From Octopus vulgaris (taxonomy: Eukaryota): DNA of 64,000 bases. The stretch is taken from assembly GCA_951406725.2 (NCBI GenBank), contig OX597815.1, positions 127,100,001-127,164,000 of the forward strand, in the 5' to 3' direction. How positions within the stretch are numbered: position 1 is the stretch's first letter; each line of letters starts with the position of its first letter. The position numbers and the translations under genes were made by a program. The notes beneath the pieces were generated by a model. It saw only the letters and a program-made list of their open reading frames with translations, made no database searches and was not told the origin of the DNA. Of this stretch, positions 4,819 to 62,560 are shown piece after piece.

Positions 4819-5053
4819 TTACACTTCAGTGGCTTCAACATCTAAATTATGATTTAAATTATCAAAAGAAGTAATACTCTTTACTCTCTTTTACTCTTTT
4901 ACTTGTTTCAGTCATTTGACTGCAGCCATGCTGGAGCACCACCTTTAGTCGAGCAAATCGACCCCGGGACTTATTCTTTGTAAGCCCAGTACTTATGTTT
5001 ATTTCTGTTTATTTCTGTATCACATTCTTTAATCACAGTGTCCAACTTGAATA
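4819..5053 (-). pseudogene. Relic C-terminal coding segment of the cadherin (FKLDTVIKECDTEIN-[SINE]-KSITSFDNLNHNLDVEATEV*)
   Basis: Coding-like text in a shifted frame on both sides of a SINE fragment, ending T-E-V-stop and followed by AATAAA signals. Confidence 0.55.
4872..5000 (-). mobile_element. 5'-truncated SINE 3' end inserted in the cadherin terminal exon
   Basis: AAGAATAAGTCCCGGGGTCGATTTGCTCGACTAAAGGTGGTGCTCCAGCATGG...GAAACAAGTAAAAAGAGTAAAAG; related copies near 25075-25240 and 55990-56280. Confidence 0.8.
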
Positions 5054-5148
5054 TGGTGAATCATCATCAAATTTGTTACGGTTCTGTAGTTTAATATAAG
5101 TATTTTGGGGATGCGTAACACCAATATCATCATTAAAGGCAGGGTTTA
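5033..5148 (-). CDS. Cadherin terminal coding exon as currently framed (LNPAFNDD...FDDDSPYSSWTL*)
   Basis: Acceptor TTATTTTAG, phase 1, NPAF motif, TGA at 5033-5035. Confidence 0.6.
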
Positions 5149-6560: not shown

Positions 6561-6875
6561 TGTCATTTTCTTTCATTATAACTGAGGGTAAGTATAGAAG
6601 TGTTATTCCAGATGTATTCACTTCAATAACATTTTGATTAAATTCAAATACACCACCTTTTAACCTAGAACACTTTATGCTTTTCATCCTCATGATTCTA
6701 AACAGTAGCAAGTGTCTCTCTCTCTCTCTCAATGCTGAAACACAATACATAAAGGCCAGTGTAAGTTAAAAATTATATCCCACAGATACAGGACATCTCA
6801 AAGGTCAATTTTGCAGACAAAAAGTTGACATTGCATCCATTCCAAACCAAAGACACAGACATTAAAACAACTTAC

Positions 6876-6916
6876 GTTTTTTAGTGGTTTTAGCTGCTCT
6901 TAATTCCCTGGAATAT
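6876..6916 (-). CDS. Cadherin juxtamembrane cytoplasmic exon ((R)YSRELRAAKTTKK)
   Basis: Strong acceptor TTCTATTTCTCTTCAG, donor GTAAGT, 41 nt, phase 2/1; basic RxLxAA motif. Confidence 0.72.
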
Positions 6917-6963
6917 CTGAAGAGAAATAGAATAAGCAGTGAACAGACAAACAAATATGTCAT

Positions 6964-7003
<40 letters not shown>

Positions 7004-7054: not shown

Positions 7055-7925
7055 TATTGGGTTGGCAATTAAGTTTCCGCAGTATTTTAAAATTTAAATT
7101 TTTAAAAGCTTTAATAAGAAATAACAACTAATTAATTAATAATGTATTCACGCTTGTTGTTTACAACTTCTTCCCAACGTTCAACAAGATTTTCACTACC
7201 TCGCTGGTAGAAATCACCTGATTTCAACTCGAAAAATTGATCCAGCTAAGCTTTTAATTCTGCCCCAGTATTGAACAAAACTCTATGCATAGCATTTGAA
7301 AGAGATCGAAAGGGGTGGAAAACCATTGGTGCTAAATCAGGAGAGTATGGTGGGTGTGGCAGCACTTCCCAGCCATGCGTTTGAATGGCTTCCTTGGTCA
7401 TATTGGTGATATGAGGGCAGGTGTTGTTGTGCAGTAGAAAAACTCCATGCTGCCGATTAGGTCTTAAATAGCAGTGTTGAGTCATTCCATCTGCTGAACA
7501 TAGAGTTCCACATTAACCATTTGGTTCTGTTCAAGCAATTCATAATGGATAATCTCTTCCCAGTCCCACCATATGCACAACATCGTTTTACACGGATGAA
7601 GATCTTGTTTCACACATGATGTTACTTGTTTACCAGGGCTAAGCCATTCCTTCTGCAGCTTCATATTGATGTACAGACACCGTTTTTCATCACCAGTTAT
7701 GATTCGGTAAAGAAATCATTGCTTGTGTCCATGAGTTGAGCGGTGACAAGCAAGCAAACCAGCAGAGATTGTGGCTAATTGATTTTTGTTGTTGTCACTT
7801 CGAGCATGCAGAACCCATGCTCCATACTTCTGAAACTTTCCCATCGAATGAAGATGCTTCTCTATAGCAGTGTAGGAGCATTCCATATTCTCTGCCAGTT
7901 CCCTTGTCGTTTGACAAGAATTTTC
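7055..7925 (-). mobile_element. Mariner transposon, 5'-truncated and decayed
   Basis: IITGDEK, MLCIWWD, LLHNN, HPPYSPDLAP motifs; TIR-like TATTGGGTTGGCAATTAAG at 7055. Confidence 0.88.
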
Positions 7926-7929
7926 ATGC

Positions 7930-9750
7930 AAAAGTTGGTTTTGCAAAATATGTGGCATAAAAAAGTTCCACAGGTTTCGATTTATGGATCCAAGAAAGGA
8001 ATCCCAATGCATGCAGCAAACTGGTTGCAGCAAAGGGTCACCATACCACTAAACTACAACTATGCAATGGAATATTTACCTTTGCAAATGCTAGGACATG
8101 ATGAAGGTCTATCCTGGTTAATACCCAGAAATGGCAAACCATTCAAAGACACAGCAATAGCAACCCTAAGAGCTGAAGGGGAAATTAAACACATAATATG
8201 GAACACTGTACGATAGTTATCAATAACCTTGGAGGAGATAAAGCGATATGCATCAGAAGACAAGTTCATTAATGAAAATAAAACTTTATGGTCAGCAAAA
8301 GAAAACAAAAAATCGTTTCGTAAGAAAAAAAAAACATGATGTAATCATATATTCAACACGTGATGGGGTACTTATGTATGGCTAAAAGGTAGTGATACCT
8401 GAGATTCTACAAAAGCGAATGTTGAAAGAATTCCATATTGGACATCCAGAGATCGCAAGGATAAAATTGTTTATGTGCAGCTATGTGTATTGGCCAAAGA
8501 TGAAGTTGAAAATGTAGTAAAAGACTGCAGAGGATGTATTCTGGCAGCAAAATTGCCTATAGAAAATGGGAGCCTTTGCCATAAGTAAAAAGTTCCTGGT
8601 CAAGACTACATATCGACTTTGTGGGTCTGTTAAAGGGTTATTACTTCTTAGTCGTAGTTGACAATTTTACAAAATGGCTGGAAATTGTTTAGTGCAAAAG
8701 ACAAACTGACTCAATTATGATGAATTTTTTGCATGAATTATTCCCAAGATTTGGCATCCCAGATGTAATTGTATCTGATAATGGAACACAATTTGTCCAG
8801 TGAATTTAGAAAATTCATTGAAATGTTCATGGAAGAACATAAAACGATAGTGTCTTACCATCCCAGCTCAAATAGACAGGTAGAGCAATTTGTCGACACT
8901 TTTAAAAGAGCTTTGAGAAAAGCAAACAAGGAAGTAACAAACAAAGTTGCTTTGCAGCAATTCCTAAGGGTATATAGGGTGGCACCAAACCCCAATACAC
9001 CAGCAAAAAGCTCACCAGCAGAACTGATGTCCACTAGGAAGGGGAAATCAGTTTTTCATAAACTGTTACCTGGCAAGGAAAGAAAAAGTGCCAGGAAAGA
9101 CACTATCAAAATTTTTCAACATTGGTGATAAGGGGAACATGAGGTCGTATAAAAGCAGAAAACAGTACGAGAAAAATTACAAAGTACATAGGAAAACTGA
9201 TGTACAGAATTAAAAGCAGAAAAGGTATTGAAAAAAGACACAGAAATGAATTGAAGAAGAGATTCATAGAAAATGAATCAAACAGCCTGGAAGAACCTAT
9301 GGAATGGATATATGACACATTCCAGGTACCAACACTGTTACAGGGGGTTGAACCTATGCATACAATTCGAAGGAAAAGGAAGAACACAGAGTTCCTACAA
9401 ATAGATACCAAAAAGAAAAGTATTAAGTTGAAAAAAAAAACGTTAAAAAGAGAAGAGGGGTGAATAAAGTAAAATAAAATTACTTGCTTCCCACAGAAAA
9501 AGAAACTAAAAGGGGAGACATAGTGAAAATGGTACACTCCTTGCCATGTGATAAACTGGTGTGGTAAGATACAGAGACTATGAGGTCAGACAGTCAGTCG
9601 TTGTAGAAGGTCAGTAGTAGTAAAGTTATTATACAAGTTCTTTGTTGGAGTCAGTGTCAGTTACATGATATATACATGTTTGAGTTATCGTCAAGGTAGA
9701 TGTTTCAAAGTCAAAAGATAATAAGACACAGAATACCACCACAACATAAT
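7930..9750 (+). mobile_element. Ty3/Gypsy (K02A2.6-like) pol fragment (RNase H, integrase) and probable 3' LTR
   Basis: GSKKGIPMHAANWLQ, HIGHPEI, VSDNGTQF, YHPSSNRQVEQFVDTFKRAL; purine tract, then an LTR-like segment ending ACAACA near 9745. Confidence 0.85.
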
Positions 9751-11965: not shown

Positions 11966-12090
11966 CTCTGATTACCTGCATGAGACAGAAGCATCGTAAT
12001 GATGAATATGCAAACCAACATCACAGTGACTGTAATAATACTTGTGAAATTCTTTTCATTGCTGTTGGCAGTTCCAGGTGATTCAGGTCG
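11966..12090 (-). CDS. Cadherin transmembrane exon (RPESPGTANSNEKNFTSIITVTVMLVCIFIITMLLSHAGNQR)
   Basis: Acceptor TTGCTCTTCTAG, about 20 hydrophobic residues, donor AG|GTTGGT, 125 nt, phase 0/2, fitting both neighbouring exons. Confidence 0.7.
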
Positions 12091-12479
12091 CTAGAAGAGC
12101 AAGAAATGTCAATCAATAAGGATTTTTACAGAACAGTAAACATAAACATAAAAACCACATAACAACAACATCAATAATTAAATAATAATTTCTGTGGCAG
12201 AAATCCAACAATTTGTTGGATGGGGATTAGTTAATTGAACTGATCCCTGTACTTCATTGGTACTTTATTACATTGCTTCTGGAGGGATGAACAGCAAATA
12301 TAGCCTGGACAAGATTTAACTTGTGAATGTAAAAGCACCAATACAAACACCACAAGGATTTTGTCTCTGACACTGTAATGATTTTGACAATCAACTGCCT
12401 TAACAGCAACAAAAACAACAAAAACAACAAAAATAACAAAAACAACAAAAATCTGTAAAGATTGTGACTGTGGTAATTG

Positions 12480-13012
12480 CTGCGTTAGAGACTGCAAATG
12501 AATAAAGAAGACTGGAATGGAATCTCCTGCAGAGCTTCTAAAGAAGATTTGCCTCTTAGGAGCAGAGAATACCATTACAAAGGTTTTGAACATTGCATGG
12601 TTCATCATGTGGATATCTAAAATTACAGATAGTAACATGCAACCTACGTAAATTCTACCAGGAATAAGATTAATCCTAAGTCAAAACAATTATAATAATA
12701 AAAAAATGAAAGAAATATAAATTTTAAAAAAGGATGCCAGAAACATCTACATAAGATCCCAAGAAAACCATGTCTCAGAGAAATCCAAAAGATTTTGCTG
12801 ACAAGTACTGCCCACATCCTCAGAAAACCCTATCTATTTAAATGTCTGTGTTGTATTATATGGAGATATTTTGCTACACCCACTCCCCAAGATTTCAGTC
12901 ATACTGTAACATCTCTTCCGCTTCACTTACCCCCAGGATGCTGTGTGTGTCTTGGCAACTGATTGTAACAAACATGCAGATTAAAAGTAAGCAATAAAGA
13001 TAATAATAATAA
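12480..13012 (+). mobile_element. Two old RLE-type (R4/Dong-like) LINE 3' fragments
   Basis: Relics LKKICLLGAENTITKVL and EIQKILLTSTAHILRK resemble the end of the 13814-17790 element; the second ends in (TAA)n. Confidence 0.6.
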
Positions 13013-13813
13013 TAGTATATATACATATACATATACATATACATATGTGTGTGTGAGTACACATATACATGTGTGTGTAGGTATATATATACATAGTCTC
13101 TTTCTCTCTTCCTACCATTAATTACAAATATAACAGGCTGAACTGCTCTTCAAAAAGAAAAAAAAATAGAAAAGTTTGACCTCTCCTGACCATTAATGTC
13201 CTTTGTCTCTTGGGCTGTCTCTCCACCATCCGCTGAATCTATTTATAGACCCATAGAGCATGACCTCTTCACCAATCACTGCCCCAAACAATGGTAGTAG
13301 TGGTGGTGATGGTGATAATGATAAAAACAAAAATAACAATAAGATACTGCTGTCACTACACATAAAACAATATCACTGATGATGATGGTGCTGATGGTGA
13401 TGATGATAATAATGATAGTAATAGTGCTGATAATCTATCTATCTATCTACACACACGTACACACACACACACACACACACAGTTCAGCCAACACAAACCT
13501 CACCTCCGCTCTTTAGATGTTAACCAAATATGAATGTATCATCTGCCAGGCAAGAATTCTGGCGTTGAAGACAGCCAGCCAGCCAATGAGACAGACAGAC
13601 ACACAACTCAACCCGCTGCCAACATACTGTGATGGTGATAATGATAAAAACAAAAATAACAATAATAAGATATTGCTGTGACTATACATAAAACAATATC
13701 ATTGATGATGATGATGATGATGATGATGGTGATGGTGATGATGATAATAATGATAGTAATAGTGGTGATAATAATAATAGTAATAATAATGGTGATGATA
13801 ATAATAATAATAA

Positions 13814-16800
13814 GCCGGCTACAGCTGCTATAATGGTATGATTATAATTGTAACGGCAATGATGACCGTCTCCCCATGAGCCACTCAAAGCTCAAAAATG
13901 ATAACATTATCGTAGCACCAAAATGTTTTTGGAAACTAAAAGGAAAACTAAATCAGTATACCAAATCGCTTATCCTATGGTTAATCTGGAAGCGCGTCCC
14001 CCAGGGAAGAGCCAGCCTGGGATCGAAAAGTCATCAACTGGCACAAACTGTTCTCCGAATATGGACATGGATGGTCACTTGAACGGGAAATCCCCCAACT
14101 CGAGCCCTCCAAGTTCACCACCACAACCACCACAGAAAGAAAAATGTAAGCAGAACAAATGGACCCGAGAAGAGTATAAAGAAGTAATATACGCTTATTA
14201 CTATACATTAGGTAGGCCATCTCAAGAGAGACACACCGCAAACTCTTACAGTATATGGAGAACATGGAATCAAGACAGTAGGCCCTATTTGGATGAGAAC
14301 AAATTGGCAAATGTGAGGAGGGATATCCTTAGAAATAACAGATTCACAGACAGTGAAATAAGCGCGATCAAGCACGCAACAGAAAATGACATAAATATAA
14401 GACACAAAGGAAATGAAGAATCAGATGAACAGAATAGCCCGACACGAGGCTTAATTGAAAGATTGCCATCTGACCAAAGTACACAAAGGCCTGAAGATAC
14501 AAGAAATTCTATTGAACCTGTTAAAGATAGCCAGGAAAATGATAAAACAACAGTAACTGAAGATCTCGCATTTGCTGAAGAACACAGAGAGTCTATGGCA
14601 GAAATGAGGCAGAAAATCCTGAATACGCTTGAAGTTGTAAGACATACAAGTATGAATGATAGAGAACCACTTCATAAACTCTCAAATACAAACCAAAATA
14701 AAAAACAAATCAAAATTGGCAACTATGTAACAAATGAAATAATACAAGAATTAAAACCTGATTTTACTGAGTTAAATGAAATTATTTATGCTTCTGCTAG
14801 GGCAATTGAAACCAGCTGTATGCCCCCGAAAAAACAAAGAAAACCAAACCTGGGAAGAAATCAAACCTGGAGAAGTAAAATTGAAAAAGAGATTGAATTT
14901 ATGAGAGGGGAAATATCAATATTAAATGAACTAATATGTGGAAATGATGTAAGATCCAGAACAGGAAGAAAGATGAAGAGAAAATTTGGATCCTCACCAA
15001 GAGGAGAACTAGTATCAATAAAAGAAACGCTGAAACAAAAAGTCCAAGCAAAAGCCCAAAGTATACGAAGATTTGAGAAGAGAAACAAGTTTTACAAGCA
15101 AAATAAGCTGTTCACATCCAATGCCAAAAAATTCTACAGAGAAATAGGGAAGGAGAAAGTAACCGTTAAAGACCCCCTCCCATGGAAGAAGTTCAAAACT
15201 TTTGGAAAAGGATTTGGAGTGACAAGACGTACAACATAAATGCAGACTGGATTATACAAACAGAAGGATCCTACCAAAATTTACAACAACAAGCATGGGA
15301 AGACATCACAATAGCAGACCTAAGAAAGGCACTCACAAAGGCCCATAATTAGAAATCTCCCGGTAAAGATAGGGTGCCGAATTTCTGGCTCGCATCGCTC
15401 CCATGCGCACACGGTAAGCTAGTTCAGCTGCTCAATGGAATTATGAGAGACCCAAAGAAAACACCTGAATGGTTAGCAAGTGGTATTACTTACCTACTCC
15501 CAAAGAATAATGAAACCAACCTTCCAAAAAACTATCGGCCTATAACCTGTCTATCCACCACGTATAAAATCCTAACATCTATCCTGGTGGAGAAAACATA
15601 TGCATTCATGGAGAAGAACGATATTTTCCCTATTGAACAAAAAGGGTGCCGCCGAGGCTCATACGGATGCAAAGATCAACTGCTAATTAATCGTATGATC
15701 CTTGAGAACTGTCACAACAAGCGCAGAAATCTCAGCTCTGCATGGATTGACTATAAAAAGGCCTTCAACAGTATACCGCATCCATGGATCTTGAGATCGC
15801 TGGACACCTTCAAAATTTCCCCTGTGATTTCAAGCTTCCTGAAGCACAATATGTCATTGTGGAATACGAATCTCCAACTATACCACTCTAATGGAATACT
15901 TGCCTCAGAGAATATAAACATCAACTGTGGAATTTTTCAAGGTGACTCACTTTCACCTCTAATATTCTGCATAGCCCTAATACCCCTTACAAAGTGAATT
16001 AAACAGAACAGGGTATGGGTATAAAATTGCCAATAAAACAATAAGCCATCTATTTTATATGGATGACTTAAAACTCTATGGTAAAGTCAATAATGAGCTT
16101 GAAGTCCTATTGCACACTGTGAAAGCATTCAGCGATGACATCGGGATGGAGTTTGGGCTTGAGAAGTGTGCCAAGGCCACTTTCCAGAAAGGGAAAGTGA
16201 AGACCACAAATTCAGTCGTGCTAGATGTTGACACAGTCATAAGAGAGCTTGAGCAAGAACAAACATACAAATATTGAGAGATAAATGAAGGCTCTGGTAT
16301 TCAGCATGCAAGCATGAAAGAGAAGATCAGGAAGGAATGTTATAGGAGAGTCCGTGCAGTCCTGAAATCTGAACTAAATACATGTAACAAGTGTTAGCTA
16401 TAAATTCCTTAGTAGTTCCAGTTGTTACTTATAGCTACAATGTGTTGAACTGGAATATGAGTGAAGTAAACAATATAGATAGGAAAATACGCAAGCTGCT
16501 GAGTTGTAATAGGATGCACCACCCAAAGGCAGACGTAGATCGCCTTTACCTCCCCAGAGCCCAAGGAGGTCGAGGCCTGATCCAATTTGAACTAGCTTAC
16601 AAAACAACCACAATTGGACTGGCCAAATATCTTGAAATAACAAATGACTGGATGCTAAAGCTCATGGAAAATCACGAGAGACGAAAGAAGCTTCATTCTA
16701 TCATAAAGGAAAGCAAAAAATTTGCTATTGATCTCGTGCAGGATACCCAAACTGAACAACCCGAGGGAAGTACGGCAACTATTGTTGCAAAGAAGGTGAA

Positions 16801-17790
16801 AATGATGGCAATGAAAAAAGCGCACGAGCAATTGGCTGATAGGTGGGAGGAGAAACCTCTGCACATGGCAAATATGTGGCCCGTAGCAAACAAGCTGATG
16901 TTGACCAGAAGCAAACCCATCAGTGGCTACGGAGCTCAGGGCTAAAAGCAGAGAGCGAAGGTTTCATCCTGGCTGCTCTAGATCAAAGCCTATTAACTCG
17001 GAACTACCAGGCCAATGTGATGAAAAATGGAGCAGACCCAAAATGCCGATTCTGCAACGACATGATTGAAACAGTGGACCACCTAATCTCTGGATGTAAA
17101 TTCTTAGCACCAGTGGAGTATAATTAAGACATGACAGAGTTGGCCAATATCTACACTGGCTAATAAGTCAGCATTACAATATCAAAACTGCCGACAAGTG
17201 GTATAATCACCACACTGAAGCTGTAACTGAAGGAGAAAATGTAACGATTCTGTGGGACTTTCCAGTACATACAAACCAAACCATCAAAGCCAATAAACCG
17301 GATATTGTTGTGAAAGACCAAAACAATAAAGTTTGCTTATTGATCGACATGAGCATCCCCTGTGATCATAATATCTCGGCGAAAGAGTTTGACAAGCTCA
17401 GAAAATATAAAGACCTGCTCATTGAAGTTGAGAAAATGTGGCATCACAAGGCAGTTAAAATACCAGTGATCGTAGGAGCACTAGGAATGATCAAGAAGGG
17501 AACCGAAAATTATATGAGAATGATCCCTGGCTTACCATCCCTGCAAGAAGTGCAAAAGATTGTCTTAACTGGTACATCACACGTATTGAGAAGAGCATTA
17601 TCGATGTGAGAACTATTACTACCCATGTATTTTAATTTAACTTTAAAAAAAAAATTTAAAAATTTAAAAAAATTAACGAACTAGTGAGTTTAGTTTAATG
17701 GCCTCCCAATGTATACTATGAGTTTCTTTGCCCTAGGAGTCGGGAAGACACTCGGCAAGAAATGGAAGCAAATTTGAAAGAAAAAGAAAA
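13814..17790 (+). mobile_element. Near full-length Dong/R4-clade non-LTR retrotransposon (single RT-CCHC-RLE ORF, several frameshifts and stops)
   Basis: NYRPITCL, WIDYKKAF, GIFQGDSLSPL, YMDDLKLY, GGRGL, CRFC..ETVDHLISGC, RHD, KPDIVV..LLIDMSIP; (TAA)n arrays on both sides, the known Dong target. Confidence 0.92.
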
Positions 17791-17791
17791 G

Positions 17792-17921
<130 letters not shown>

Positions 17922-17929
17922 TAATAAAC

Positions 17930-19760
17930 ATCAGTATGGAATTTAGGATCACCAAATGCTCAGCACTTAGTATGAAAGAGGGAAAAAAGCAGCCTGCAGA
18001 GGATTGTGATAAACATAAGAAGAAACCATGGGTGAACCTGATGGTAGTAGATATGGGTGTTTAGGAATTTAGACATTCTACAAAGAGAAATGAAAGTCAA
18101 GGTCAGTGAGGTGTATCAAAAATGGGTGAAGATGGTTTTGAAATCCAACCTGAATGCCAAAAATTTGATTACTGCAATGAATATATGGGCAGTTGCAGTG
18201 GTCAGATATAGTGCATCTATCCTCAAATGGACTATGGAGGAAATATCAACACTGGATAGAAGGTCGAGAAAGTTGATGACGCTGCATGGGGCGCTACACC
18301 CTGAAGTAAATGAAAACAGACTGTATATGAAAAGAAAGAGTGGTGGCAGAGGACTAATTAGTATAGCCCATTGTATAAGGTTGGAGGCGCAATGGCCCAG
18401 TGGTTAGGGTAGCAGACTCTCAGTCGTGGTTTCAATTCCCAGACCAGGCATTGTGAGTGTTTATTGAGCAGAAACACTTAAAGTTCCACAAGGCTCCGGC
18501 AGGGGTTGGTGGTGAACCCTGCTGTACTCTTTCACCACAACTTTCTCTCACTCTTTCGTTCTGTTTCTGTTGTACCTGTATTTTGAAGGGCTAGCCTTGT
18601 CTCACACTGACATGCTGAATCTCCCTGAGAACTACATAAAGGGTACACGTGTCTGTGGAGTGCTCAGCCACTTGCACGTTAATTTCACAAGCAGGCTGTT
18701 CTGTTGATCAGATCAAATGGAACCCTTGTCATCGTAACCAACGGAGTGCCAACCAAATTGTATAAGGAGTAAAAGAAAAATACTGGCTGAGTATATCATA
18801 AATAGTGATGAAGACCTGCTGCAATATACCATGAAAGATATGGGTGTAAATTCAATGAATGATGGGCAAAGATGAATTTAAGCAAAGAGCTGAGAAGAGA
18901 AAAGAAGACCTTCTTGAAATGAGAATGCATGGACAATTTGAAAGGAATACACAAGATGATAAGGATAATACAGCATCGTGAACATGGCTTGAGTGAGGTG
19001 ATTTGAAGCGTACCACTGGAAGCCTGATCACTACTGCATAAGATCAGGCTCTCGCTACCAATTCAATGAAGTATAACATCTATAAAACTTCTGACACCCA
19101 GAAATGTAGATTCTGTGGAATGAGTGTGGAAAACATGACCCACTTGGTAAGTGGATGTGAGAGCCTTGCACAAAAAGAATACAAGTGCCACCATGATAAA
19201 GTGTGCATGTATCTTCATTGGCTCCTATGCTGTAAATACCAATATGAAGTAACAGAGAACTGGTGTGAGCATGTATCAAGTAAAGTTATGCAGGAGGATG
19301 GAAAAGTAATGATACACTGGTACTATGATTTTCAGATGGATCATGTAATCGAACACCGTCAGCTGGATATTGTCATATTGAATAAGAGAGACAAATACTG
19401 TCAGATCATTGATGTAGCCATACCAAATGACATGAATGCTGTGAGTAAAGATGTTGCAAAAAATCACCAAATACTCCAAATTGAAAGTGGATATGACAAA
19501 ACTGTATGGAACGAGAGGATAATGTAAAAGTGATACCAGTGGTGATTGGAGCATTGGGCTCAATCCCATTAAAAGTCAAAACTTCTTAAGGCAACTGGAA
19601 ATCCCATGCAAGATTGATGTCTTGCAAAAAGCAGCCTTATTGAGTACAGCACACATCTTAAGGTTTGTATTATCGGTCTGAGGTCCTTGTGACTTGACAG
19701 ATGACTAAAGACTCCAGTGCATTTTTGCCTACACTGTGTTATGAAAGAATAATAATAATA
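17930..19760 (+). mobile_element. Older 5'-truncated R4/Dong-like LINE
   Basis: KSNLNAKN..RYS, GGRGLISI, CRFCG..ENMTHLVSGC, HHD, IIDVAIP, VVIGALG; (TAA)n tail. Confidence 0.85.
18381..18756 (+). mobile_element. tRNA-derived SINE nested in the LINE, with 11-bp TSD
   Basis: A-box TGGCCCAGTGG, B-box-like GTTTCAATTCC; ATTGTATAAGG duplicated at 18370-18380 and 18757-18767. Confidence 0.88.
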
Positions 19761-19761
19761 A

Positions 19762-20090
19762 TAGATCAAGAACAAACATTAAGGACCAAGTATATGAAAT
19801 GCAGAATAGACAACACTCCCGAGAGCAACAAATACAGAATGTGTGGTGAGATGGGTGAAACAGTGGTACATTGTTAGTGAATGCTCAAAATTGGCACAAT
19901 GTGAATACAAATGATGGCATGACAATGTGGGAAGAATGATCCATTATGGGCTCTGTAGAAATCACAGCCTACAAAGAACAAAGACGTGGTATGAGAAAAC
20001 CCTAGAAGAAGTCACTGAGAATGAAAATTAAAAAATCTTGGGGGATGTAATGATTCAGTGTGATCACCTGACCAGACATATGGAACTACA
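19762..20090 (+). mobile_element. R4/Dong-like LINE fragment (CCHC region)
   Basis: QEQTLRTK..RMCGEMGETVVHIVSECSKLAQCEYK.WHDNV. Confidence 0.75.
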
Positions 20091-20183
20091 TGTCAACATT
20101 TATATTATTTACAAAAATGCTACACAGGCACATGATAGCAGATTATACTTTACAACAATCAATAAAATTAAAAACAAACTTAC

Positions 20184-20696
20184 CTCTGGTATAGTGATTG
20201 TATCATTTGGCTTTTCAAATTTTGGATTGTTGTTAATGTCAGTAATATTAATACAAATAGATGTAGTTGAACTTAATGGTGGATTTCCTTGGTCTTTTGC
20301 AGTAACATTGAAACACTTGACTCCTATTTTATTTGTTAAATCTGAAGCAATACTCAGAACACCTGTACCTGGATCCATTTTAAATAACACAGATTCCTTT
20401 CCTTGTAGTGAGTACTGAACTTTACCATTTTCTCCAATATCTTCATCAGTGGTTGCAACAGTCAAGATAATTCCTGTTGATATGCTTTCTTGTACATTTT
20501 CAGAATATTTATCAGACTTAAATACTGGAGGATTGTCATTAACATCAGTTACATTGATTAAGATTGTAGTTGTATTTTCTTTCCATCCAGGTTTTTGAAA
20601 ATTATTTTTATAGTCATAGTTATCTTGAGCAGTAATAATAACAGTGTACTTATCCACAGCCTCTCTGTCAAGTTCTGAAATTACCACTATTTCTCC
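20184..20696 (-). CDS. Cadherin exon L (GEIVVISELDRE...DVNDNPPVF...DINNNPKF...TITIPE)
   Basis: Acceptor ATTTCAG, donor GTAAGT, 513 nt, phase 0/0; inside ORF 20109..20711. Confidence 0.93.
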
Positions 20697-29539: not shown

Positions 29540-32500
29540 AGTTGGTGCTTTTTACATGCTACCGGCAGGGAAGCCGGTCAAAGCGGAGCTGGCATCGGCC
29601 ACGTTCGGATGGTGCTTTTTATGTGCCACCGGCATGGGTATCACAACTACAATTTCCATTTGATATTTATTTTGATGTTGATGTACTTAACTCAATAGGT
29701 CTCCTCAAATACAGCAGGTCACCCTGCGATCCAAGGTAAGCGCAGCAGGCCGTCCTGCGATCCAAAGTACTTTGGATGGGCTGGGGTTGTTATGTGAAGC
29801 TGGTGGAGGAAACAGTCATGAACTCACGTTATTTGTCAGATCTTCGCAGTCATAGCATATCTCCAGAGATCTCGGTCTTTCGTTATTGCCTCTGTGGGGC
29901 CCAATGTTCGATGGTCATGCTTCACCACTTCATCCCATTTCTTCCTGGGTCTACCTCTACACCGGATTCCTTCAACTGTTTGGGAGTGGCACTTCTTCAC
30001 ACAACTCTCCTCATCCATCCGTAGTACATGACCATACCAGCGCAAACGTCTCTCTTACACACCAGATCTGATGCTTCTTATGTCCAACATTTCTCTCAGG
30101 GCGCTTACACTCTGTCATGTATACACACTGACATTACACATCCAGCAGATCATGCTAGCTTCATTTCTTTTAAGCCTACGCATGTCCTCTGCAGCCACAG
30201 CCCATGTTTCACTGCCATGAAGCATGGCAGCTCACACACATGCGTTGTACAATATACCTTTCACTCTGAGTGAGAGACCCTTTGTCACCAGTAGGGGTAG
30301 AAGCTTTCTAAACTTTGCCCAGGCTATTCTTTTTCTAGTGGTGACACTCTCTAAGCATCTACCCCACTACTAACTTAGTGACCTAGATAGCAGAAGCTAT
30401 CAACTACTTCTAGTTTCTCCCCCTGGAGTGTGATGGAATCTGTTTTCTAAGTATCTGTGGTGTCTAATTGCCCCTGTGCATCAGCTGCACATGAAAGCTA
30501 TCTTGTGTGTTAATTTTCCTTTGATGTTGCTGCACCTCTTATGTGTCCATAGCTTACACTGGGTGCATCTTATGGAGTTTCTACCTACACCTTTCCTACA
30601 GATCGAGCAGGGCCACCTGCCCGAGGGTGTGTGTGCTGAGTTCGCCTTTCTGCTTACTATAACTTTGGTCTTTGCTACATTTACTCTAAGGCCCTTTGAT
30701 TCTAAACCTTGCTTCTACACCCGAAATTTCTTTTCTAGTTCCGGTAGTGATTCTGCTATGAGGGCCAGGTCATCAGCATAGAGGAGCTCCCAGGGGCAAC
30801 CCATCTTGAATTCAATTGTTATTGCCTGGAGGACTATGATGAATAAAAGGGGACTGAGGGCTGAACCTTGGCGGACCCCTACTTCTACCCAGAATTCTTC
30901 ACTATACTCATTGCCAATCCTAACCTTACTAATGGCCCCTCTGTATAGACCCTGTACAGCCCTTATTAACCATTCGTCAATCTCCAGTTTCCGCATCGCC
31001 CACCAGATAATGGATTGGGGGACCCTGTCAAAGACTTTCTCCAAGTTCACAAAAGCGAAGTACAGGAGTTTATCTTTAGCTAGGTATTTCTTCTGCAGTG
31101 GTCGAACCAGGAATATGGCATCAGTAGTGCTTCTACCCGGCACAAAACCGAACCGCATCTCATCTAAGCATACTCTCTCCCTAATGAGATGGGCTATGAC
31201 CCTCTCCGTGAACTTCATCACCTGATCCAGCAGTTTGATACCCCTGTAGTTATTTCTATCTAGAGCACCCCCTTTACCCTTGTAGCAACTGACTATGGTG
31301 CTGCTATGCCAGTCATTGGGTATAATTCCATTATGAACTACCTGGTTTACAATGCGGGTGTCTAGGCCATAGCCCACATAACCAGCTGTTTTAAGCATCT
31401 CAGCAGTGATTCCTGATGGACCGGGGGCTTTTCCTGGTTTCATACCCTTAATTGCTTTATCTACTAGGGAGCTGTCTATTGGGATAGCTGGTCCCTCTAC
31501 TGGGTCAACATTAGGCAGGCTCTTCTCCTCCCATTCATTCTCCACATTCAGCAGTCTTTCATAAAACATTAAAAGTAAGTGCACCATCATCCATGCGGAC
31601 GCATTTCTCTCCTGTGACATCACAATTTTCTCTCATACACTGTTTAACAATCCGAAATACCTCAGTTCTTTGGTCCTCACGTCGCTGGACATTGGCAAAC
31701 TTCTTTTCCACTTTGCCCTGGCTATGTATACCGCCCGGCCTCCCTTTTGGCTACCTGGTACAGTTCCATGCTACCCCCACCCTTCCAGGGCTTCCAGGCA
31801 TGTTTCTTTGCTCTAATGGCTTTGTCTACCGTACTATTCCACCACCACGTAACTCTAGGTGTGGAAGGGACTTTGCACCATCCACAGACTTGGTCTGTGG
31901 CACTCAGCAAGCTGTCCCATAGAAATTTCGAGTTACCTTCTATGTCCGACGTCTGTAGCTCTTCCTCCCTCTCTTTAAATTTCTTGATGATGATCTCCCT
32001 AAATCTCTGACCATGTGAAGGGTTCTTTAGCTTCCAAATCCTTCTTTTCTGGATTGGTCTGCTTCTTTGTATCCTTCTGGCCTCGATCCTAAAGTCACTA
32101 ATGACCAGCCTACGTTGGGGGGTACATTCTTCACCTGGGAGGGTCTTTGTATTTAAGAGCAACCTTGCGTCCCGCTGTCTGGTGAGGATGAAATCAATCT
32201 GGCTAGCAAAGTCCCCTGATTGATAGGTTATAAGGTGGCTGTCTGGCTTCCTGAAGTTAGTACTGCAGATTAAAAAGTTACATGCATCACAGAACTCCAG
32301 TAGCCTAGTTCCCTCATTATTTCGGGTGCCAATACTATGGCTACAGCGTACCCCAGTGAAGATATCAGATTCTTGCCCAACATGCCCATTAAAGTCTCTA
32401 GCCTCAAAGATGAGGTCATTGCCACTCGTCTTTGAGGTAGCCTGTAGAAGGGTATCATAAAAGTGATCCTTCTGATCATTTGGTAGCCCTGAATGTGGGG

Positions 32501-32645
32501 CATAGGCGGAGATAATTGTAGCTGTACTGTTCTGCAGGACTAGCCTGAGCTTAAGCACTCTATCACATACCCTGACAACCTCTATGACCTTATCTACTCA
32601 TTTCTCTGCCAGGAGTATGCCAACACCCCCTACACCATCCACCTT
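29540..32645 (-). mobile_element. RTE-clade LINE, near-complete APE-RT ORF with disablements
   Basis: APE motifs IISAYAP, DFNGHVG, SQIDFIL; RT motifs NYRGIKLL, FGFVPGRSTTDAIF, GVRQGSALSP, YADD; C-terminal WYGHVLRM..RGRP. Confidence 0.93.
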
Positions 32646-43069: not shown

Positions 43070-45110
43070 ACTTCTGGTAAGTTTTACAGAATTTTACAGT
43101 TCCAGTGATGGAGTGGATCTGTAGTCTTCGAATTAGCTTTCACCTTTCTCATTTTGAGAAGCCTAATTTCTCAAGGTTGGTATTTAGGCAGTGTGTTACA
43201 TATCCCAAGCCCCAATAATTACAGGTATAAATCTGAACTTGTAATATGGATAGAATCAATGCAGATTTCTTAATAGTTCAGCATAGGTGTTTTCTTTCTC
43301 ACTGATCTTCAGCTTTATGTTAACATCCGCTGGAGAGTTAATTTCCACAACTGCACACAATTTCTCTTCTCTACCCAAATCATTATATCAGGTCTGTTGT
43401 GCTTACATTTTTTTGAGGTTTTTACTGAGACATTCCATCAGTACTTCTTTTTATTTTGAGTGGCTATGGCTTGTACTATGCTGTAGGTTCTTATTTCTTT
43501 GTCCTTGGGGTTATCCTTCTGAAGGATTTCATTACATAGTGTTCTAGCTATAACATCATGTCTCATTGGTAGATAATACTGTGACGATACTTTTGGACAG
43601 CTGCTTATGATGTGGGTAATATATTCATAAATTCTGCATCGATTGTCACATTTTACTGGTTTCCTGCATCTGTATCCCTTTTATGCATCAGGTATTTAGT
43701 TTATAAGGCGGTGAGCTGGCAGAATCGTTAGCACGCCGGGCGAAATTCTTAGCAGTATTTCATCTGCCGCTACGTTCTGAGTTCAAATTCCGCCGAGGTC
43801 GACTTTGCCTTTCATCCTTTCGGGGTCGATTAAATAAGTACCAGTTACGCACTGGGGTCGATATAATCGCCTTAATCTGTTTGTCTGTCCTTGTTTGTCT
43901 TCTGTGTTTAGCCCCTTGTGGGTAGTAAAGAAATAGGTATTTAGTTTATATTTCCTGTTCCTGGATTGCAAATACATACTCTTCAAAGTGGGAGGTAGTA
44001 ATCCAGCTATTAGTCCATGACAGACTGCTTTGATGATCAATGTTACTATCATCACAGAGATTTCTACTAACATATCCATGCATAGTCTTCTGCTCATATA
44101 TGATCATCCTTTCATCTAATGATACATTACAGTAGTGTCATGCAACTTCTTTGGGCATGATAATTTAAGGTTATCAGACAAGGAATATTGCTCAAGGAGC
44201 TGCTTTATGATGTTATCAGCCTCAAGTACGCAAACTTGGTCAAGGGATGCACTTCAACACTTGGTTGTTAAAAGATGTTGCTGAAGGGATATGATATGAC
44301 ATTCAAAGACATTTTGGATCGATGTTAAGCCTCTGCTGCCTTGTTTTCATTTTAGGTAGAGGTGATCTATATCACAGTTTATGTGGAAATTATGTGTGCC
44401 TGTTAATATTTTTGGGGTCTTCACATCAAAGGCTTGGATCTCATCAAGCATCCAACCGAGCAGCCCAAATTTTGGTATGCATACTGGCACCAAAAACACA
44501 TTGTGGACCACTGTTTTATTGAATGTAGAGTTCTGAGGTTCAAATTTTCTTTATTCAGCTGTAACATTCATCAATGTTTCAAGCGTCAATGTAGGATATG
44601 TTTTATTCCACCTGAGGTACCTGAAACATTCCTCATCAGACATAGGGGAAACAGTCAAATCATTGCTGGAGATGTTACTTGTCTGGTTTACAGTCTTCTC
44701 TCTTTTCACAACCATATAACAACATTTATCCTGATCAAACTCCAACCCTACATCCTTTGAGAATATTGTAAATAGTTCAAAGCTCTTTTTCATCTCAAGT
44801 GTATTCTTTGCATAAAGTTTTAAGTTGTCCACAAAGAAACAGTGTGTAATTTTGATATTTCTGTTTCCTCATGAATCAGTGAGATACCCTTCAAACTTCC
44901 TTAACATGAATGACAAGGGGTTTACAGAAAGTATAAACAACATCACAGAGAGACTGTCCCCTTAGAATATGCCTTTGTGATACTGCATTCTATCAGTGAT
45001 AATACAGTCATATTTTGTGTTTAATTTCAAGATTGTGGTCCACAATGAAGTCATGGCTTTGATTATGCTCACTGGAAATTTAGCAAGGTGAAGGGTGTGT
45101 GTGAGTGAAT

Positions 45111-60164: not shown

Positions 60165-62560
60165 TGATCATCATCATGATTTAATGCTCTCCTTCCATAC
60201 TGGCATGGGTTGAACAGTTTGACAGGAGCTGGCCAAGTAGGAGTCTGTGTCATATTTCTGTGTATGTTTTGGCATGGTTTTTTATGACTGGATGCCCTTT
60301 CTAACACCAAACACTCTGCAGAGTGGGCTGAGTGCATTTTATGTGACATCAGCAGAATTGAGGTCAGTTTTGGTATGATTTTTACAGCTAGCTGCTCTTC
60401 CAGATATCAACCACTTTACAGTGTGGAGTGGGTGCTTTTTAAGTGGCACCTGTACAAGCAGGGTCACTAAGTAATTTTGAAAGACAAGGAATCTTTAAAA
60501 GTTGAGGGGGCATTGGAGGAGGTGTTCTTGTGTCAGATGATGAAAGGTTAGACTGTAACAGGGAGACAGAAATAGATGTCTTGCTGCAGAGGAGGTAAAT
60601 GGTTACCAAGCCAGAGAGAGGGAGGGAGAGAGAGAGAAAGAGAAAGAGAGGAAGAGGACAGAAAGAGAGTGAGAAATAACGAGAATGAGAGCAGAAACAG
60701 GTGTGCTGCTGAAGATGTAGGACATGGTAACCTAGTAAGAGAGGGGGAGTTAACAAGAAAGAGATGTGCTGCTGTACAGGAGAGACATGGTTACCTAAAC
60801 AGAAGGAGGGAGAGAGATTGATCAAGAATGAGGACAGAAACAAGTTTGTTGTTGTAGAGGAAATTCATGATTATTCAACAAGAAGGAAGAGTAAGGGAGA
60901 GAGAGAAAGTAGGAGACAGAAAGAACAAGAGAGGGATGGCAGTTAGTGCTAGGGTATGCTTGCAAGGAACAAAGATCAGGGCATAGATGGGATGGTAGAG
61001 GAAAGAAGAAAGAAATGAATGATGGCAGGTGCAGGTAGAGTGTTGCCAAGAAGTAGGATGTGTGAGTGGGGAATGTTGTAATGCTGTAACTGGTGAGAAT
61101 CTGGGTATAGAGGGGGAGGGGACAAGGGAGAGCAATAATAGAGTGGGCAGTGTTGAAAGGATTAGATTGGTGAGTGGGAGATAATCATAGCTATGAAGAG
61201 GAAATGTGAGGAAGAGAAGAGAAACAGTTTGGGATCAGATTCACTGGCATGGGTGATCTTCTCTACATCCTCATATCACTAGACATCTCGGACCATTGTC
61301 ATTTCCTCCATGAGCCCCAACATCCTGAGATCAGAGATCACCATTTCATCTCATGTCTTCCTGGGGTTGCCTTCTTCCATAGGTGCCATCCACATTCAGT
61401 GACTGGCTCTTCTTTATGCAACTGTCTTATATGCATCACATATCTAAACCAATGTAATCTTCTCTCATGCATGCTGCATTTGATTCCTCTTATGCCCAAC
61501 GTTTCTCTCAACACATTTGCATTTTGCTGTAACATCCAGCTGAGAATAATGTGTTCATTTCTCTCTTATCTACACGTCTTGTGCATTCAGAGCCCATGTT
61601 TCATTACAATAGAGTATAGCCATTCATACACAGGCATCATGCAATCTACCTTTCACTCTGAGAGAGTCCTTTTGTTGCCAACAGAGGTAATAGATCTCTG
61701 AAATTCCTCCATCCTATTCTTATTCTAGAAGCAATACTTTCAGAGCATCCATCACCATTGCTAATTTGGTCATCTAGGTAACAGAAGCTATCTACTACTT
61801 CGAGAGAGCATCCTGGGCATTTGAGAGTGTGTAAGTCCGGTGTGCTCTTAGTGCTTATTGCTTATGCACATCTGCCACATACAAAGATGACTTTATCTGT
61901 TAATCTACCTGTGATTCCACTGCATCTCTTATAGGTTGATAACCTACATTTCGTGCAGTGAATGAAATCACTTTCCTACAAATTGAGCAGAGCCACTTAC
62001 CTAATGGAAAGAGAGTCTTATCTGTGTTCTTGCTAGCAACACCTTTGGTCTTAACTAGGTTAACTTTAAGGCTCCTTGATTCCAGGTTTTGCTTCTATAC
62101 CAGGAATTTCTTCTCCAATTCTGCTACAGATTCTGCAATGAAGGTGAGGTCATCAGTGTACAGTAGTTCCCACAGGCATCCAGTTTTGAATTCCTCTGTT
62201 ATGGCCTGGTGCACTATGATGAATAGGAGTGAACTAAGAACTGAGCCCTGGTGAACTCCTACCTGTACGCTAAATTCATCACTGTATTTATGCCCGACTC
62301 TCACTTTACTGACAACATCTCCTTTACTCCTAACTTCCTCAGAAACCACCATTTAACAGAGCAGGGAACTCTGTTGAAAGCTTTCTCCAGGTCAGTGAAG
62401 GCTAAGTACAATGGCTTACTTTTGGCCAAGTATTTTCCTGCAGCTGTCTCACTAGGAAGATGGCATCTGTGGTACTCTTCCCAGGTACAAAACCAAACTG
62501 TGTCTCATCTAGGTTAATTCTATTCCTAATCAACTGAGCTATAATTCCCTCTGTAACTAA
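60165..62560 (-). mobile_element. Decayed RTE LINE (RT to 3' tail) with a purine-rich expanded 3' UTR
   Basis: QFGFVPG, VGVHQGSVLS, LLYTDDL, RRLHWF; GAT-type tail near 60170. Confidence 0.85.

Follow-up and report, generated by a model that had tools for sequence, protein, structure and literature searches.

How does a cadherin gene come to lose the part that joins its long ectodomain to the membrane, and what can it still make once that part is gone? The question is raised by a stretch of 64,000 nucleotides of Octopus vulgaris (C2:127100001-127164000 in a 2.8-Gb assembly; "the window" below always means this whole stretch), in which the cadherin gene under study lies on the minus strand. Its last cadherin exon, here called exon L, breaks off 11 residues into a new repeat, and the next exon of the family, 8 kb further on, is the homolog of the transmembrane (TM) exon of its relatives. 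A preliminary description, drawn from the letters of the window, took these two exons to be spliced together in frame, attributed the arrangement to a frame-preserving internal deletion of several exons, and saw in it a re-engineered adhesion protein. Comparison with the gene's tandem paralogs shows that such a deletion is real. The reading that we favour, at a probability of roughly 60%, is that truncation has left a paralog whose canonical modules for anchoring and for the tail are gone or in decay, irrespective of the 3′ end at which its transcripts stop.

Exons L, F and B of the gene each have exactly three matches in the whole genome, all on C2 and in one orientation, and they belong to three tandem copies: copy A at ~127.56-127.76 Mb, copy B at ~127.28-127.43 Mb, and copy C, the gene of the window. 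The full-length neighbours that the preliminary description suggested looking for are thus at hand. Copy C itself reaches upstream to a signal-peptide exon at C2:127253107, with exons found up to that point. As far as exon L, the exon layout and phases of copy C are like those of A and B, with an exon DNA identity of 93-99% (97-98% for exon L against B and A), and the TM, juxtamembrane and last exons are homologous as well; copy C differs in that eight exons plus exons 11 and 12 are missing and the last exon is disrupted. Among the O. vulgaris protein models, CAI9718144.1 and CAI9718145.1 represent copy A and CAI9718139.1 represents copy B; the tail of the last is encoded with 100% identity on C2, at a distance of 167 kb from the window. 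For copy A, the complete architecture can be read from CAI9718144.1 (P0121, 1768 aa), in which exon L is followed by eight exons (residues 1176-1591), the TM exon (ETEPPTVVNNDEKNFIIFIAVIAVLVCILIITIILFYASNR), a 41-nt juxtamembrane exon, two small exons and a last exon finishing ...DVEATEV. Copies A and B both have many cadherin repeats, a membrane-adjacent domain (MAD), one TM helix and a tail ending ...EATEV, whose final TEV we take to be a PDZ-binding end.

Two reports describe the PCDH15 ectodomain as EC1-11 plus MAD12 (10.1101/695502), and state that MAD28 is predicted in CDH23 and that the PCDH15 MAD drives parallel dimerisation (10.1101/460097). Judged by alignment to solved chains, the octopus family is of this CDH23/PCDH15 type, MAD-bearing, as had been proposed. 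The eight exons of A and B form a block of 416 codons holding three cadherin repeats and a CDH23/PCDH15-type MAD, and these 416 residues align in a single stretch, MAD included, to CDH23 (8tri_A, E 3e-25) and to PCDH15 (6c13_A). A fragment from O. sinensis that is 97% identical to copy A (P0122) aligns to residues 233-452 of the CDH23 chain through the MAD (E 1e-12), and its alignment to the PCDH15 chain spans both MAD12 and the TM helix. In the window, Pfam Cadherin matches fall on 8 minus-strand open reading frames (ORFs), with E values from 4e-19 to 4e-5, and the many tandem repeats of copy C have visible DxNDN-type calcium-binding linkers between them. One limited literature search found no printed account of an octopus cadherin-23-like family.

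Within the window, copy C has twelve cadherin exons, each with GT-AG borders and an open frame:

63231-63043, minus strand: exon A
58053-57889, minus strand: exon B
55967-55812, minus strand: exon C
54054-53993, minus strand: exon D
53148-52911, minus strand: exon E
47118-46885, minus strand: exon F
39881-39809, minus strand: exon G
33316-32880, minus strand: exon H
28984-28849, minus strand: exon I
24899-24699, minus strand: exon J
22565-22252, minus strand: exon K
20696-20184, minus strand: exon L, the last cadherin exon of copy C (Pfam Cadherin, 3.3e-18)

Together they make 906 codons without a stop, and no disabling mutation is present either in exons A-L or in the 5′ exons found upstream of the window, so that the frame runs intact from the signal peptide to exon L. 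Exon L holds the end of one repeat, one complete repeat, a DINNN linker and 11 residues of the next repeat, and it ends on ATA CCA GAG followed by GTAAGT (...DINNNPKFEKPNDTITIPE), that is, in phase 0 at a consensus donor, GAG/GTAAGT. The coordinates and splice sites first given for this exon and for the TM exon held up, and so did their phases. The significance attached to them did not: the stop 11 residues into a repeat, which had been presented as peculiar, is the normal exon L boundary and is common to all three paralogs. In all three copies exon L also ends and the TM exon also starts in phase 0, which is why a direct splice between the two would be in frame. Since 7 of the 11 donors of exons B through L have phase 0 (by arithmetic on exon lengths), a kept frame is the likely outcome of any such deletion. 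The in-frame join is a by-product of the many phase-0 exons, expected by chance, and is no evidence of design.

What copy C lacks are the eight exons (416 codons) that A and B keep between exon L and the TM exon, where residues 1176-1591 of CAI9718144.1 map in copy A. When a 409-aa query taken from copy A past exon L was searched against the whole genome, 111 matches were returned. The 10 at 75% identity or more lie in A (six) and B (four), the others do not exceed 41% and fall in other cadherin genes, and there is no match close to the window. Both edges of the loss can be read in the DNA. From exon L upstream, the window is colinear with A and B at 95-97% identity, and past exon L the colinearity ends sharply:

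20174..20183, minus strand: upstream breakpoint; homology to A and B passes the donor GTAAGT and stops 6-10 bp into the intron
12700..20173, no strand: 7.5 kb of fill that is not colinear with any part of A or B

Past the breakpoint, A and B carry on with a TG-rich microsatellite. Homology returns at 12699 against A and at 12443 against B, which is 350-600 bp ahead of the TM exon, with 82-86% identity. The distance between the homologous points is 52.8 kb in A, 64.7 kb in B and 7.5 kb in C. Because A and B are colinear with each other across the same point (93-98% identity), the break is specific to copy C. A frame-preserving internal deletion of several exons, as originally proposed, is therefore the right description of the locus, resting as it does on this three-way comparison.

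The gap between exon L and the TM exon had been described as free of cadherin-like exons, and it is. None of the 31 minus-strand ORFs of at least 60 aa between 12091 and 20183 has a cadherin Pfam match, and a permissive tblastn (E up to 10) of three full-length family proteins against the same interval gave chance-level matches only, the best of them (E 0.03) on the plus strand within an ORF of a long interspersed nuclear element (LINE). Nor is there anything in this interval, or near the window, that corresponds to the MAD present in paralog A. Microsatellites and the following elements occupy the gap instead:

13905..17927, plus strand: LINE antisense to the gene, with an ORF1-like ORF, RVT_1 (6.6e-18) and zf-RVT (2e-5), ending in an (ATA)45 tail (TRF 17792-17927)
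18168..19565, plus strand: second LINE fragment, the 3′ part of ORF2, matching the first LINE at 16391-17492 by tblastx
19755..20046, plus strand: third LINE fragment, without a 3′ end of its own, stopping ~130 bp from the exon L breakpoint
19885..19968, minus strand: alternative exon in antisense LINE sequence, with the acceptor ...ttctttgtag, reading AVISTEPIMDHSSHIVMPSFVFTLCQF and then a stop

The missing 3′ end of the third fragment would fit a deletion that ended in or beside an old LINE, rather than a fresh insertion.

At the far side of the gap stands the exon that, in A and B, leads into the membrane:

11966..12090, minus strand: TM exon, phase-0 start, the next family exon past exon L

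It starts at 12090 behind a strong acceptor (...ttcttgctcttctag) and reads RPESPGTANSNEKNFTSIITVTVMLVCIFIITMLLSHAGNQ(R) in phase 0, homologous to ETEPPTVVNNDEKNFIIFIAVIAVLVCILIITIILFYASNRR of CAI9718144.1 at 50% identity (E 1.4e-6). The exon has diverged and is open, and it has two donors. The ancestral one, AG/gttggt, puts the exon end at 11966; the second and stronger one, GCAG/GTAAT, puts it at 11976 and makes the exon 10 nt shorter. A single A-to-G difference from the paralogs (window 11975-11980) creates the consensus CAG/GTAAT, where A and B have GCAAGTAAT; in O. sinensis the codon here is Asp (SHADNQ), and no GT is therefore possible there. By this comparison the GCAG/GTAAT donor is new in copy C, and it shifts the reading frame. 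The two octopus species differ at 5 of the 41 residues of the TM exon and at 0 or 1 in the flanking exons, and its hydrophobic stretch is preserved in both. We set aside dN/dS, the ratio of non-synonymous to synonymous change, as evidence of selection on this exon; it is uninformative there, exceeding 1 even between A and B.

Beyond the TM exon, the DNA identity of copy C to A and B is only 79-92%, against 95-97% upstream, and two further family exons can be recognised:

6876..6916, minus strand: juxtamembrane exon, 41 nt, reading (R)YSRELRAAKTTKK in the ancestral frame (RYSRELRAAKTTKK)
4819..5148, minus strand: last-exon relic, homologous to the last coding exon of A and B

The region around the juxtamembrane exon (6755-6965) is 92% identical to copy A, and the exon reads DIPGN and then a stop behind the 11976 donor. 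The alignment shows three lesions in the last exon: its beginning is shifted by 2 bp, 25 bp are deleted at 5048, and an interspersed repeat of 114 bp, which local blastn matches more than 20 times within the 560 kb around it, is inserted at 4990-4877. The conserved tail pieces, ..NKFDDDSPYS, LDTVIKECDTEINR and ..DNLNHNLDVEATEV, fall in three different frames. Exons 11 and 12 of A and B are matched by nothing in the window or in the next 40 kb, and in the whole genome the tail of CAI9718139.1 matches only copies A and B. On the assembled sequence, the canonical tail of the octopus family, ending ...DVEATEV, cannot be made by copy C. One path does stay open, from donor 11966 through the juxtamembrane exon into the last exon, and it ends ...DDDSPYSSWTL. 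The altered tail of the preliminary description consists, in comparison with A and B, of degenerative lesions plus a frame-shifting donor. We also considered the string VNPAFNDDIG at the start of the last exon as a relic of exon 12 (VNPLYN...); DNA alignment identified it as a shifted homolog of LHSNINNEF.

The RNA data are contigs of four runs, all with spliced contigs and therefore RNA, and contigs cannot show absence. Contigs of 4.5-4.8 kb that lie over exon L carry seven mismatches and a TTG insert and then continue into STCPDTRIYK, the sequence of copy A. Exon L has five diagnostic positions, and at each of them the whole contig depth in 4 of 4 runs carries letters other than those of copy C, with the limit that contigs drop rare variants. 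Neither a joint from 20184 to 12090, on which the proposed exon L-to-TM splice would depend, nor one from 20184 to 19968, into the alternative exon, is listed in these contigs, to which the limit just given on absence applies. The only RNA contig on the TM exon, 307 nt long and from one of the four runs (X12, depth 9.9), matches 12071-11976 without a mismatch and departs from the genome precisely at GCAG/GTAAT, 11976. The TM exon of copy C is thus open and transcribed, and its join to exon L is absent from the contigs listed. Within the gap, the interval 18368-18955 has very high contig depth in all four runs, up to ~110,000 in run X1, and shows internal joints and loose ends in several places; this points to an element that is either strongly expressed or present in very many copies.

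Among annotated models, three RefSeq entries of O. sinensis come closest to copy C, and 0 of the 3 have an exon L-to-TM junction. XP_036356631.1 (P0005, 1262 aa, with 9 Pfam Cadherin stretches) matches window exons A-L at 97-100% identity within exons; it runs from exon 1 to exon L and then into a 27-codon exon (19968-19888) without reaching a TM segment. This is the alternative exon of the gap, which lies 216 bp from exon L and has 27 of 27 residues identical to the end of the O. sinensis protein. An independent assembly, that of O. sinensis, thus has the same upstream junction, and this makes a local misassembly at that point less likely. In XP_036356630.1 (P0213), exon F (...NITVL) is joined to the orthologous TM exon in the TM frame, and past it come two exons foreign to the family and then a stop in the juxtamembrane exon. 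Both foreign exons can be found in the window:

9328..9396, minus strand: first non-family exon of XP_036356630.1, 22/23 residues identical, with AG and GT in the window
8081..8173, minus strand: second non-family exon of XP_036356630.1, 31/31 residues identical

Read behind the 11976 donor, the exon at 9396 stops after 13 codons. XP_029656906.1 (P0212), on an unplaced contig of 46 kb, goes from exon F to the TM exon, the juxtamembrane exon and an intact B-like tail, and the window has no such tail. Because XP_036356630.1 and XP_029656906.1 differ from XP_036356631.1 in the exons that they share, an additional C-like copy (a fourth, partial one) seems to be present in O. sinensis or in its assembly, without a counterpart in O. 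vulgaris. The window resembles XP_036356630.1 more in exons B-C and XP_036356631.1 more in exons E-L.

Among the 94 proteins matched at E of 1e-100 or below (694-2209 aa long), none is an O. vulgaris model for copy C. A search with the TM exon among proteins of 73-2000 aa returned two O. sinensis models only and no transcript-derived exon L-to-TM junction, which is a weak negative. The public models of the array are inconsistent with one another, some being fused, some truncated, and some skipping the TM exon or misreading its frame. XP_036356629.1 (P0123) has the N-terminal module twice and is probably a fusion of two paralogs, P0004 reads the TM exon out of frame, CAI9718139.1 (P0018) skips it, and a model from O. 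bimaculoides (P0064) carries transposon-like sequence past exon L.

Selection on the upstream exons was gauged over 843 codons, where the pairwise dN/dS of copy C is 0.99 against A and 0.80 against B. The changes specific to C are 11 synonymous and 22 non-synonymous, a dN/dS of ~0.56, and the 11 of 33 compare with 7.2 synonymous changes expected (one-sided p 0.09). In the adjacent aligned introns (2.7 kb), the divergence of C from A and B is 3.4-4.3%, with 3.7-5.2 frame-breaking indels per kb; in 2.5 kb of exon the same comparison gives 0 frame-breaking indels and a single indel of 3 nt. Frame-breaking indels in the introns and none in the exons indicate that the frame of the ectodomain has been protected, either by selection or by conversion from A and B. 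The identity between A and B is itself a mosaic of blocks at 68-98% (C2:127274001-127374000 against 127556001-127696000), and this mosaic indicates that conversion is active among the copies, which blurs both the dN/dS and the indel figures. The test by dN/dS that had been suggested gives a ratio of 0.80-0.99 in pairs and ~0.56 for C, confounded by gene conversion.

Within the A/B mosaic, 97% identity over 4 kb stands beside blocks of 77%, in introns and exons alike, which looks like repeated gene conversion. Across exons B-L of A (127.68-127.755 Mb) and B (127.363-127.43 Mb), the same 843 codons show 3.5 synonymous and 34.5 non-synonymous differences (dN/dS 2.8, binomial p 0.02-0.06), and the TM exon shows 1 and 20. 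This non-synonymous excess may reflect diversifying selection between the paralogs, or it may be an effect of patchy conversion.

How the present locus might have arisen can be put together as follows. In copy C, 7.5 kb of LINE debris stands where a genomic deletion took out 52.8 kb with the eight exons; of the deletion's two ends, one probably lay in the TG-rich tract that follows the exon L donor and one probably within a LINE fragment. A shortened product of 11 repeats is likely still made from the gene while the old membrane-proximal and cytoplasmic modules decay, and its upstream exons would owe their open frame to selection, to gene conversion from A and B, or to the two together. Its transcripts could end in either of two ways. 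In one, exon L would be followed by the exonised antisense-LINE exon at 19968, giving a secreted form such as the one annotated in O. sinensis; in the other, the relic TM exon would be followed by a short, non-canonical tail.

A number of observations weigh against calling this gene a truncated, decaying copy. The open frame of 906 codons, the C-lineage dN/dS of ~0.56 and the lack of frameshifts fit a gene under selection, in which only the tail may deserve the word "decay". One RNA run has the TM exon in a spliced contig, and two O. sinensis models place the orthologous exon, read in frame, behind a cadherin exon of phase 0. In the tail, the missing exons 11 and 12 (~124 nt by the CAI9718144.1 borders) and the 2-bp shift combine to bring the last exon back into frame, which could be more than coincidence. 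No AATAAA or ATTAAA is found within 970 nt downstream of the 19968 exon, and exon L and the TM exon may not lie equally far apart in every species or assembly. On a rival reading, exon L is after all spliced in frame to the TM exon, giving a selected, shortened, TM-anchored adhesion protein of 11 repeats with no MAD and a new short tail. We hold this form to be a live possibility, though one with the odds against it. Exon L and the TM exon agree in frame, the splice sites of both are close to the consensus, the RNA contig matches the TM exon without a mismatch, XP_036356630.1 and XP_029656906.1 show the orthologous TM exon joined in frame to exon F, the frame upstream is intact without frameshifts, and the hydrophobic stretch has been kept in both species despite the 5 of 41 residue changes. 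However, the contigs of the four runs have no joint from 20184 to 12090, and the diagnostic positions of exon L in them all carry paralog letters, itself a weak point given that contigs drop rare variants; XP_036356631.1, which does have exon L, does not reach the TM exon; behind donor 11976, which the RNA contig takes, the next exons stop after 5 to 13 codons; and the canonical ...EATEV end cannot be made. The calcium sites of cadherins sit at the linkers between repeats, and a protein ending in mid-repeat would have its last site left incomplete.

Copy C could also be further gone than the favoured reading holds, a dead but transcribed pseudogene whose frame is open only through overwriting gene conversion from A and B. 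The mosaic identities (68-98% between A and B; 95-97% upstream and 79-92% downstream for C), the pairwise dN/dS of 0.8-1.0, the tail lesions, the large internal deletion and the lack of an O. vulgaris model for copy C among 94 strong protein matches would all agree with this. Conversion, though, would homogenise introns too, and these carry 3.7-5.2 frame-breaking indels per kb where the exons carry none; the C-specific changes lean synonymous (11 of 33 against 7.2 expected, p 0.09), and the O. sinensis ortholog is also open, over 1235 residues. A dead copy is for these reasons doubtful. Still less probable is that the 8 kb between exon L and the TM exon are an artefact of assembly, a collapse or mis-join of paralogous or duplicated segments. 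A tandem array at 95-98% identity invites such errors, O. sinensis has two differing C-like sets of exons B-F to the one of O. vulgaris, and the window is nearer to one of them in exons B-C and to the other in exons E-L. But the window contains no N, the 19968 exon is identical at 27 of 27 residues in an independent O. sinensis assembly, the two non-family exons past the TM exon are common to O. sinensis as well, and the collapse of tandem copies would normally remove exons G-L, not keep them. A truncated paralog with a lost or decaying 3′ end thus stays our preferred account.

Other remains of mobile elements lie in the introns and flank of copy C, all on the minus strand (7485-7715, 1087-1269, 30484-32597, 44554-44868 and 62098-62352), and include a fragment of a mariner-type transposase (Transposase_1, 5e-17) and a DUF7083 ORF. 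A second LINE, on the strand of the gene, has endonuclease, reverse-transcriptase and PHD-like ORFs, and further RVT_1 fragments are found elsewhere in the introns and flank.

The finding is one of ordinary gene-family turnover, a truncated duplicate in a tandem cadherin array, and the re-engineered adhesion protein of the preliminary description is not borne out, with no exon L-to-TM splice seen in the contigs of the four runs and a damaged tail. As it stands, the locus is a well-resolved example of birth and death in a tandem gene family, useful mainly for annotation. A bolder idea, to which we give little credence, is that copy C is a selected, MAD-less cadherin-23-like paralog, either with 11 repeats on a relic TM helix with a new short tail or soluble. 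If it were true, the array, its full-length members driven apart by diversifying selection (dN/dS 2.8 between A and B), would amount to a modest source of new adhesion or mechanosensory proteins beyond the protocadherin clusters. Were the truncated copy functional, it would offer a natural experiment on a tip-link-class cadherin without a MAD, and would add a case other than the protocadherins to the diversification of cadherins in cephalopods.

Set beside the known systems, copies A and B share with CDH23 and PCDH15 the run of repeats, the MAD and the single TM helix, as compared by sequence alignment only, whereas copy C is without the last three repeats, the MAD and the conserved tail. An engineered mini-PCDH15 is said to keep the MAD and the tail, the very parts that copy C loses. 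In the other respect the two are alike, for mini-PCDH15 is likewise a cadherin of the same class shortened by the removal of internal repeats (PMC10133396).

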